Shown here in pieces: positions 3,443 to 3,459 of a stretch of DNA of 12,208 bases. Each line of letters opens with the position of its first letter. Within the stretch, counting starts at the first letter, position 1. The stretch is from the NCBI GenBank assembly GCA_026395755.1, contig JAPLYC010000095.1, positions 1-12,208 on the forward strand. The letters are read 5' to 3'. The notes under the pieces were generated by a model. The model was not told the DNA's origin, ran no database searches, and was given only the letters and a program-made list of their open reading frames with translations. The DNA comes from Candidatus Parcubacteria bacterium. Its GTDB lineage: Bacteria > Patescibacteriota > Patescibacteriia > CAIXNZ01. The translations under genes and the position numbers were made by a program.

Positions 3443-3459
3443 GGCGTCCGCCTTTGGCG
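3443..3459 (+). promoter_or_regulatory. GC-rich intercistronic hairpin GTCCGCC-TTT-GGCGGAC between the acidic-protein gene and the MVP gene (not followed by a U-tract)
   Basis: Perfect 7-bp inverted repeat starting 2 nt after the stop codon at 3439-3441. It is followed by ttaacatcc, so it is not a canonical intrinsic terminator. The 15-nt core is the exact reverse complement of the first hairpin inside the tRNA-derived repeats (342-356 and 691-705). Confidence 0.45.

Follow-up and report, generated by a model that had tools for sequence, protein, structure and literature searches.

A 30-nt double hairpin in tRNA copies and a solo hairpin in a vault operon of a Parcubacteria contig probably belong to a mobile palindrome family present in many phyla

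IS200/IS605-type elements carry a hairpin at each end and insert 3′ of a short T-containing target without duplicating it. Homing endonuclease genes of the free-standing GIY-YIG type, such as that of SegB in phage T4, lodge in or beside tRNA genes, and the known ones carry a DNA-binding domain; GIY-YIG open reading frames (ORFs) of fungal mitochondria reportedly insert with partial duplication of the target gene, as in Allomyces atp6. Rickettsia palindromic elements (RPE), which Ogata et al. are said to have reported in Science in 2000, are repeats of about 100–150 bp that are confined to one genus and lie in frame in housekeeping genes. The double-hairpin elements of fungal mitochondria and the GC clusters of yeast are found in intergenic DNA and in genes for rRNA and proteins, and the transcripts retain them (PMC2800124). 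Repetitive extragenic palindromes (REP) have a GTAG or CGTC tetranucleotide at one end (PMC3733652). Here, we analyzed a contig of 12,208 nt from Candidatus Parcubacteria bacterium (JAPLYC010000095.1; the window, which is the whole contig), in which a 30-nt double hairpin, called element E in the following, interrupts two truncated copies of a tRNA-Glu gene and a single related hairpin, called the solo hairpin, lies between a gene for an acidic partner protein and a gene for a major vault protein (MVP). In its behavior, E is closest to RPE, to the mitochondrial hairpin elements and to REP and their mosaic arrangements (BIME), and it is a member of none of these. Judging from the sequences, E is probably a family of selfish mobile palindromes, with two full copies in the tRNA-derived repeats of the window and a solo copy in the vault operon.

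The solo hairpin has a 15-nt core, TCCGCCTTTGGCGGA, at 3447–3461. Read on the minus strand, it is G-TCCGCC-AAA-GGCGGA-C, which equals arm 1 of element E plus the next C. The preliminary description of this DNA had both hairpin sequences right, as well as the positions 342–356 and 691–705; its 3444–3458 for the vault copy was 3 nt too far left, and the full hairpin occupies 3446–3462. The sequence TCCGCCAAAGGCGGA stands at 342–356 and 691–705, and its inverted match to the vault hairpin extends to 16 nt (342–357 and 691–706). A second hairpin, CCCGCC-TCT-GGCGGG, had been said to follow in the repeats and is seen at 357–371 and 706–720. The complete 30-nt insert in both truncated tRNA copies is TCCGCCAAAGGCGGACCCGCCTCTGGCGGG. 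It is inserted between anticodon positions 35 and 36 without target duplication, and excising exactly 30 nt restores the tRNA-Glu sequence GGTTCT/CATCC with the anticodon loop TTCT/CAT (the slash marks the site). Homology to the tRNA ends after position 42 in both copies, which lack the T arm and the 3′ acceptor strand. Both E copies lie within one 79-nt direct repeat (301–379 and 650–728, 96% identical), so that the window holds two independent occurrences of the motif, not three.

With this correction of the count, the earlier judgment that the recurrence is unlikely to be due to chance holds. The motif pattern is expected 0.01 times in the window vs three matches observed, and no shuffle reached three. 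In a motif-free test, one repeat copy was removed and the three compositional segments were shuffled separately in 2000 dinucleotide shuffles; two GC-rich hairpins with 6-nt arms and a 3-nt loop (6-3-6) sharing a stem appeared in none of them. The real window contains five GC-rich 6-3-6 hairpins vs 0.61 expected, three of them with a (T/C)CCGCC stem. Calling the window AT-rich was only partly apt, as the solo hairpin itself is surrounded by a stretch of 47% GC.

To cover other genomes, we scanned one genome per species with the pattern CCGCCNNNGGCGGNCCCGCCNNNGGCGG, which yielded at least 120 loci. High-GC actinobacterial matches with a central C or G were chance-like and were set aside; 103 listed copies with the central A were kept, and the counts given below for E refer to these. 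The 30-nt consensus is T-CCGCC-nnA-GGCGG-A-C-CCGCC-Tnn-GGCGG-G, preceded by (t)TT and followed by (c/a)Aa, and the E copies of the window match it. Its stems are essentially invariant. The loops vary, loop 1 being rich in purines and loop 2 in pyrimidines. A T and a G form the two ends in 92 copies, and the loop positions n3:m1 are A:T in 95; the upstream flank is T-rich. Length is fixed at 30 nt and boundaries are precise, without target-site duplication; the element lies directly 3′ of T or TT and occurs in both orientations.

The hosts are low- to mid-GC metagenome-assembled genomes (MAGs) of many Patescibacteria classes, Omnitrophota, Planctomycetota, Kiritimatiellae/Lentisphaerota, Chloroflexota, uncultured Gammaproteobacteria and others, and one listed copy comes from a single-cell genome. 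Several MAGs carry E on more than one contig among the matches listed. The small dispersed palindromic element that had been suggested for the window is therefore borne out as a family of 30-nt double hairpins with solo relatives in many phyla, on a scale far larger than proposed. Among 2.9 million viral contigs a single match to CCGCCNNNGGCGGNCCCGCCNNNGGCGG was found, in a contig of 69% GC and probably by chance; phages are not an evident vector of E. Neither the DNA strings nor the encoded peptides nor the concept led to a description of E in a search of the open full-text literature, subscription-only literature lying outside this search, and the family is apparently undescribed.

As single-stranded DNA, the E of the window is predicted to fold into two abutting 6-bp hairpins (−13.4 kcal/mol), and on the opposite strand one long hairpin of nearly the same energy is preferred. 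Variant stems changed on both sides (TCAGCC/GGCTGA, TCCACC/GGTGGA, CCCTTC/GAAGGG and CCAGCC/GGCTGG) were found mainly upstream of GIY-YIG genes. In pairs of one variant and one standard arm, both short hairpins are kept perfect and the long hairpin is broken. These patterns favor two short hairpins as the fold that is maintained. We also considered a long-hairpin model and rejected it: when counted, the loops showed little of the covariation that had been apparent at first, and the stem variants favor the two-hairpin fold. Covariation is seen for n1:m3 only (C:G observed 12 times vs 2.4 expected); n2:m2 combines a purine with a pyrimidine and does not covary. One further variant is fully symmetric, with GGATCC at its center.

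Element E is often located at the tip of a sequence that forms a stem-loop by itself, namely in loops of structural RNA genes and at the centers of longer palindromes. Among the RNA genes, it is found in tRNA D loops (L024, L034, L107, L091, L072 and L068), in anticodon loops (the window and a Saccharibacteria tRNA-Glu, L006, at the same site as in the window), in opposite orientation in tRNA-Ser anticodon loops (L113, L114, L118, L045 and L085), in a T loop (L101) and in a loop of 5S rRNA (L039). When E is excised, L024 regains a complete tRNA-Val and L113 a perfect tRNA-Ser(UGA) anticodon arm. The E-bearing tRNA copies are usually truncated, and in most cases an intact gene stands beside them, usually for the same tRNA. 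The intact neighbor is a different tRNA-Arg isoacceptor in L034 and an intact 5S gene downstream in L039; no intact partner was present on the L006 DNA examined, and a scan for tRNAs only gave none for L006 and L039. Each of the eleven E-bearing copies beside GIY-YIG genes has an intact neighbor from its own tRNA or amino-acid family, and the same holds for most E-bearing tRNA or 5S copies without a GIY-YIG gene. After in silico removal of E from the 103 sites, ARAGORN run on both strands predicted a complete tRNA at L024 only, where an intact tRNA-Val adjoins, and this single case turned us away from reading E as an intron. A group I or bulge-helix-bulge tRNA intron is ruled out by the missing 3′ tRNA half of the window copies and by a phase bias in ORFs.

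This phase bias concerns the copies within protein genes. Stop-to-stop ORFs of at least 150 amino acids contain 62 of the 103 copies, and the 38 copies with at least 60 amino acids on each side are distributed over the three phases as 27:4:7 (chi-square p = 4e-6) and over the two orientations as 21:17. The preferred phase, TCC GCC nnA GGC GGA CCC GCC Tnn GGC GGG, is translated into S-A-x-G-G-P-A-x-G-G, and the other strand into P-A-x-G-G-S-A-x-G-G. Because GCC and GGC are reverse complements, a small, flexible linker of Gly, Ala, Ser and Pro results in either orientation. The bias indicates that E is translated and not spliced out, which fits the observation that E-bearing tRNA copies are seen only as crippled duplicates.

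Host proteins are LeuRS (in its editing domain), SecA, CTP synthase and RecG. The inserts lie within Pfam domain matches, which run correspondingly longer than the profiles, and an alignment of three RecG proteins showed clean indels of 9–10 residues. In RecG of two Patescibacteria classes (L073 and L028), E occupies the same LHGxM/K site in the helicase C-terminal domain, and in a third RecG (L090) it lies in the wedge domain; four further listed loci belong to the RecG cluster. The shared site could be a hot spot (TTT/CAT on the other strand) or an old insertion. Copies at the centers of longer palindromes, some built of short tandem repeats, were found in L026, L033, L040, L074, L111, L089, L122 and L044. 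We also observed that in L026, L033 and L040 (one Omnitrophota MAG), L074, L111, L005 and L038 E marks the exact center of long palindromes whose arms are arrays of 7–8-nt tandem repeats, such as GTTACAG/GTTTCAG or CGTATAT, with several such foldbacks per genome.

Single hairpins like that of the vault operon are found elsewhere as well. With E masked, TCCGCC (19) and CCCGCC (7) lead the 6-3-6 stems counted in 661 kb of E-bearing loci, the next one reaching 5. In 890 kb there are 31 unpaired solo hairpins, most of them outside long ORFs and many in tRNA-related DNA; several are TCCGCC-nnA-GGCGGA-C, the exact form of the window copy on its minus strand. The solo hairpin of the window would thus be best classed as a single arm-1 copy of the E family. 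A separate observation concerns L136 (about 1440–1500), in which a tRNA-Ala fragment upstream of a GIY-YIG gene contains the solo hairpin CCCGCC-ATA-GGCGGG; a 15-nt anticodon arm was apparently replaced there by a hairpin of the same length, not interrupted by an insertion.

Only two protein families recur within 1 kb of E in about 95 listed loci, namely GIY-YIG, the sole nuclease, and RecG as a host. The suggestion that the palindrome might be connected to a nuclease thus finds circumstantial support. All 11 GIY-YIG ORFs in the listed E loci and the window adjoin E, ten of them abutting it and one (L058) at a distance of about 90 nt; most listed E copies have no GIY-YIG gene nearby. In these eleven loci the gene is flanked by an E-interrupted copy of a tRNA and by an intact tRNA of the same amino-acid specificity, the three lying on a single strand. 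Units of a hairpin-interrupted tRNA copy, a GIY-YIG gene for a protein of 80–90 amino acids and an intact tRNA for the same amino acid, on one strand, were found in the window (301–820), L124–L128, L147, L113, L114, L118, L045, L085, L072, L091 and L024. In these units the nuclease ORF starts 10–20 nt after the tRNA fragment, without a Shine-Dalgarno sequence, and often runs into the next tRNA gene, giving C-termini such as ...EGWPSGLRRRS, which is translated tRNA-Ser. The sense of E relative to the tRNA and the GIY-YIG gene is the same in the tRNA-Glu type and antisense in the tRNA-Ser type.

In the window, the GIY-YIG gene sits between the two 79-nt repeats, and its ATG follows the first E at a distance of 17 nt in which there is no Shine-Dalgarno sequence; the protein has no NCBIfam match. 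The second truncated tRNA-Glu copy starts 12 nt after the GIY-YIG stop codon, where relatives have the intact tRNA-Glu (in L124, the gene ends at 1330 and the tRNA starts at 1342). As the normal position of the intact tRNA is interrupted by E in the window and an extra intact copy follows 20 nt downstream, a second round of the same process is suggested. Six closer relatives of the protein (51–67% identical; L124–L128 and L147) are encoded between a tRNA-Glu 5′ fragment with one or two inserted hairpins and an intact tRNA-Glu, which is Glu(TTC) in L124–L128 and Glu(CTC) in L147 and the window. In L124, L125, L127, L128 and L147 the anticodon loop holds the insertion, with the 3′ strand of the anticodon stem coming next, which is also the layout of the window; in L126 the arrangement is less clear. 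Searched at E ≤ 1, Rfam returned for the window the tRNA and two noise matches only, with no known RNA family over E or the solo hairpin.

To avoid ascertainment through E itself, we fetched 80 metagenomic loci by GIY-YIG similarity alone, using an alignment of four sequences. A tRNA gene on the same strand lies within 150 nt in 59 of the 80, and CCGCC-type hairpins within 250 nt in 21 of the 80. GC-rich perfect hairpins are found up to 80 nt upstream of 45 of 90 GIY-YIG genes vs 22 of 410 control windows. Other palindrome families hold the same place in other GIY-YIG loci, for instance CCTGCCTGCCGGCAGGCAGG in D loops, and in L145, L168, L181 and L164 the unrelated family CCTGCCTGCC(G)GCAGGCAGG occupies tRNA D loops before GIY-YIG genes. 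The arrangement is hence not specific to the CCGCC stem.

Table 1 Positions of the hairpins, the copies of element E and the associated genes within the window
Feature	Position	Strand	Details
Solo hairpin GTCCGCC-TTT-GGCGGAC	3446..3462	.	7-bp stem, 3-nt loop; sequence GTCCGCCTTTGGCGGAC
Element E copy 1, 30 nt	342..371	+	Hairpin 1 TCCGCC-AAA-GGCGGA at 342-356; hairpin 2 CCCGCC-TCT-GGCGGG at 357-371
Element E copy 2, 30 nt	691..720	+	Sequence identical to copy 1; hairpin 2 at 706-720
Truncated tRNA-Glu(CTC) copy 1	307..378	+	tRNA positions 1-35 at 307-341, one mismatch to intact gene; then E; CATCCTG (36-42) at 372-378
Truncated tRNA-Glu copy 2	656..727	+	tRNA positions 1-35 at 656-690 (35/35 identical to intact gene); then E; CATCCTG at 721-727
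Intact tRNA-Glu(CTC), without E	748..820	+	ARAGORN; Rfam tRNA 61 bits
GIY-YIG catalytic-domain protein, 84 aa	389..643	+	Pfam GIY-YIG PF01541, E = 1.5e-13, residues 1-69
Acidic partner gene, 358 aa	2365..3441	+	5′ neighbor of solo hairpin; context, not part of the element
Major-vault-protein (MVP) homolog	3497..6757	+	Pfam MVP_shoulder 1.3e-16; 3′ neighbor of solo hairpin; context, not part of the element

Compared with the described systems, E shares with RPE that repeated palindromes lie in frame in protein genes and also in RNA genes, that an extra peptide is tolerated and that the element has no transposase of its own. It differs in its length of 30 nt, its unrelated sequence, its stems that are nearly invariant across phyla and its link to GIY-YIG genes and tRNA fragments. 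As in IS200/IS605 elements, there is no target duplication, insertion follows T or TT and two hairpins are present, but the target of E is very short, and E consists of nothing but its hairpins and is several-fold shorter than any IS200/IS605 derivative known to us. The homing endonuclease genes are comparable in that a GIY-YIG gene lies in or beside tRNA genes and the target gene is kept functional; the proteins found here, in contrast, have about 80–90 amino acids, consist of the catalytic domain only and come with a hairpin-disrupted tRNA copy.

The mitochondrial elements, which are the fungal double hairpins, the yeast GC clusters and the repetitive hairpin elements of sponges, are likewise GC-rich single or double hairpins in AT-rich genomes, and their double form can arise as tandem units. 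Distribution and structure of E match theirs, its retention in RNA being indicated by the frame bias only, whereas those elements are organellar, unrelated in sequence and divided into lineage-specific families and E is bacterial and crosses phyla. REP/BIME with their RAYT gene are GC-rich palindromes of 20–40 nt, multicopy and often paired, with a dedicated gene flanked by copies (PMC3733652), and a palindrome of 15–30 nt with several copies per MAG in some genomes makes E similar to REP. REPs are extragenic and their partner is a Y1 (HUH) transposase (PMC3733652), whereas about 40–60% of E copies lie in ORFs and the partner is GIY-YIG. The GTAG or CGTC tag is not present on the listed copies of E, which end in T/CCGCC...GGCGG/G and are flanked by T-rich sequence on the left and by G(c/a)Aa on the right. 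No RAYT (Y1) transposase, TnpA or TnpB recurs within 1 kb of E in the about 95 listed loci, although such genes may lie elsewhere in these genomes.

Taken as a probable family of selfish mobile DNA, E would spread between sites with a subfamily of very small GIY-YIG genes traveling along. Transcription of the GIY-YIG gene probably starts at the tRNA promoter and runs through the tRNA fragment, since neither a promoter nor a Shine-Dalgarno sequence separates E from the ATG. The E hairpin or cruciform may be the cutting site of the nuclease, or E may keep the nuclease from cutting the disrupted tRNA copy, and we propose nuclease-driven break repair or homing as the most likely means of spread. 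We grade a specific role of the nuclease in this spread much lower than the mobility of E itself. The wider proposal that E is an undescribed non-coding mobile element of 30 nt across several phyla, mobilized by or co-evolving with tRNA-embedded GIY-YIG proteins of 80–90 amino acids, read from either strand as a harmless linker and thereby colonizing recG, secA, leuS and pyrG, is put forward tentatively. In the vault operon, the solo copy would add a stable stem to the mRNA between two cistrons.

Several points weigh against the mobile-element interpretation. Mobility is deduced from distribution, precise boundaries and the presence or absence in orthologs, and not from paired empty and filled alleles within one population. 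For the solo hairpin, family membership draws on the 16-nt identity and on the solo copies elsewhere, and its flanks (TAAG...CGCC in arm-1 orientation) differ from the T-rich left flank of full E copies. For the source genome, the copies of E counted are those on the 12,208-nt contig. The T...G ends, which form a U-G pair on one strand only, and the asymmetry of the loops leave room for a role of E at the RNA level. The link to GIY-YIG may partly be ascertainment, with cassettes creating redundant tRNA copies in which E survives, and only those 21 of the 80 independently sampled loci carry CCGCC-type hairpins. The 84-aa protein is minimal, with no evident DNA-binding module, as are its relatives of 80–90 amino acids, and we know of no GIY-YIG enzymes that perform strand transfer.

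The alternative that survives best, though we consider it unlikely, is that E and its solo form are primarily RNA signals for processing, stability or translation of the GIY-YIG message and that all other copies are spill-over. About half of the sampled GIY-YIG genes are indeed preceded by E or another GC-rich hairpin 10–45 nt before the ATG, and neither the window nor its closest relatives have a Shine-Dalgarno sequence between hairpin and ATG. The strand-specific U-G pairing of the ends in 92 of the 103 listed copies and the compensatory stem changes that preserve both hairpins could be read in the same way, but such covariation would be no less expected of a hairpin or cruciform in DNA. An RNA signal is also hard to reconcile with both orientations relative to tRNA and GIY-YIG gene (same sense for Glu, antisense for Ser), with the 21:17 ratio of orientations within ORFs and with the majority of listed copies, which have no GIY-YIG gene nearby.

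Less probable still is an RNA element dedicated to the vault operon, one that acts between its cistrons by stabilizing the partner message or attenuating read-through into MVP and so sets the ratio of partner to shell protein; the identity with the hairpins of the tRNA locus would in that case be of secondary meaning. Position and strength of the solo hairpin would suit this function: it begins 5 nt after the stop codon of the partner gene and ends 35 nt before the MVP start codon, six of its seven base pairs are G-C, and its folding energy is −13 kcal/mol as RNA (−7.3 kcal/mol as DNA). As noted in the preliminary description, no U-tract follows, the sequence after 3462 being CTTAACATCC, so that read-through is expected, and the site is not listed in a terminator scan that does find 6798–6828, the convincing terminator of the vault operon, 3′ of MVP. 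An intrinsic (Rho-independent) terminator is ruled out by the absence of the U-tract. However, the 70-nt region around the hairpin folds no better on the sense strand than shuffles do (z = −0.5), and the same 16-mer belongs to a mobile-looking element family in unrelated contexts.

The comparison with related vault loci also argues against this function. The nearest recorded MVP relative is 51% identical, and its locus (L001) has the same order of Mur ligase, one plain tRNA-Glu, conserved promoter region, partner gene, MVP and HlyD/ABC/MacB. It contains no GIY-YIG gene, no tRNA half-copies, no gene for a PEP-utilizing enzyme and no GC-rich hairpin between partner and MVP genes. The sequence CCGCCnnnGGCGG is absent from all six related vault loci (L001, L002 and L204–L207). 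Two of these six, L001 and L207, are the only ones with an upstream ORF in the partner position, in both cases a homolog of the partner gene and again without the hairpin; L204 has no partner gene. Missing from these loci, the hairpin does not count among the conserved features of the vault cassette, and it should not be taken for a component of the vault-particle gene system. The suggested role in setting the stoichiometry of partner and shell finds no support, and such a role would be lineage-specific at best. The solo copy in the vault operon is most likely a neutral insertion, and any stabilizing or attenuating effect on the mRNA would be incidental and lineage-specific.

A third alternative treats the hairpin as an att-like recombination site bounding a single mobile island that comprises the tRNA/GIY-YIG module and the vault cassette. 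Hairpin copies do bracket a region beside a tRNA gene, a classical integration target, and the G+C content of the cassette exceeds that of its flanks. Yet the synteny of L001 persists without hairpins, GIY-YIG or PEP-utilizer, the solo hairpin lies inside the cassette between its two genes and not at a boundary, Pfam reveals no recombinase gene in the window, and each part of the presumed island has been seen to occur independently; we regard such a site as very improbable. The idea that the hairpin ties the tRNA/GIY-YIG locus to the vault cassette finds no support in L001, which is syntenic and lacks GIY-YIG gene, tRNA half-copies and hairpin alike. The MVP genes are 6–17 G+C points above their flanks in every Patescibacteria locus checked (L001, L002, L204, L205, L207 and the window), for example 52% vs 36–39% in the window and 52% vs 35% in L205. 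The partner gene shows this excess only in part, with a raised G+C in the window and about flank level in L001. High G+C as a sign of recent acquisition was therefore rejected, the excess being general across the relatives, and gene-specific composition or repeated transfer are possibilities. Coincidence between unrelated GC-rich hairpins, to which one may concede that a palindrome carries about half the information of a random 15-mer and that two of the three copies stem from one duplication, is effectively refuted by the shuffles, by the expected frequency of the pattern and by the same stem being the commonest hairpin stem in other E-bearing genomes.

Further features of the locus were noted. 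The MVP protein of the window is NTX82_06570 at NCBI, and its gene contains a tandem 39-nt (13-codon) repeat at 4105–4182, with two copies that are 97% identical and a product rich in Pro, Ala, Thr and Ser. The acidic partner protein has no Pfam match. Between tRNA-Glu and the vault promoter lie a gene with a mobile domain of PEP-utilizing enzymes (811–1920) and an ORF of 59 amino acids (1939–2118), both missing from the syntenic L001, which points to an insertion here or a deletion in L001. A promoter-like region upstream of the vault cassette is conserved between the window (2170–2300), L001 (1175–1250) and L204 (about 570–650); it reads cTTGACAAAcaa...tTTTGTTAAGTTg...atcc(c)taaaa...ATTTGACAa and has two TTGACA-like boxes and a small inverted repeat. 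In L204, an intact tRNA-Glu upstream of MVP (region 360–520) is followed first by two other GC-rich hairpins and then by a stray 3′ end, gattccccttggcggtac, which exactly matches that of the tRNA-Glu in the window. The tRNA-Glu site beside the vault genes seems to have been rearranged repeatedly.

For genome annotation, E explains the 10-residue insertions SAxGGPAxGG or PAxGGSAxGG in conserved proteins as well as tRNA-like fragments that gene finders miss or miscall. It is a candidate substrate for the very abundant, uncharacterized stand-alone GIY-YIG proteins encoded beside tRNA genes. If its mobility is true, E would be among the smallest sequence-conserved transposable units known. The occurrence of the same 30-nt sequence within essential genes of many phyla suggests that E either spreads horizontally with great efficiency or is recognized by a conserved enzyme, and either route would be new biology for these uncultivated bacteria with small genomes.

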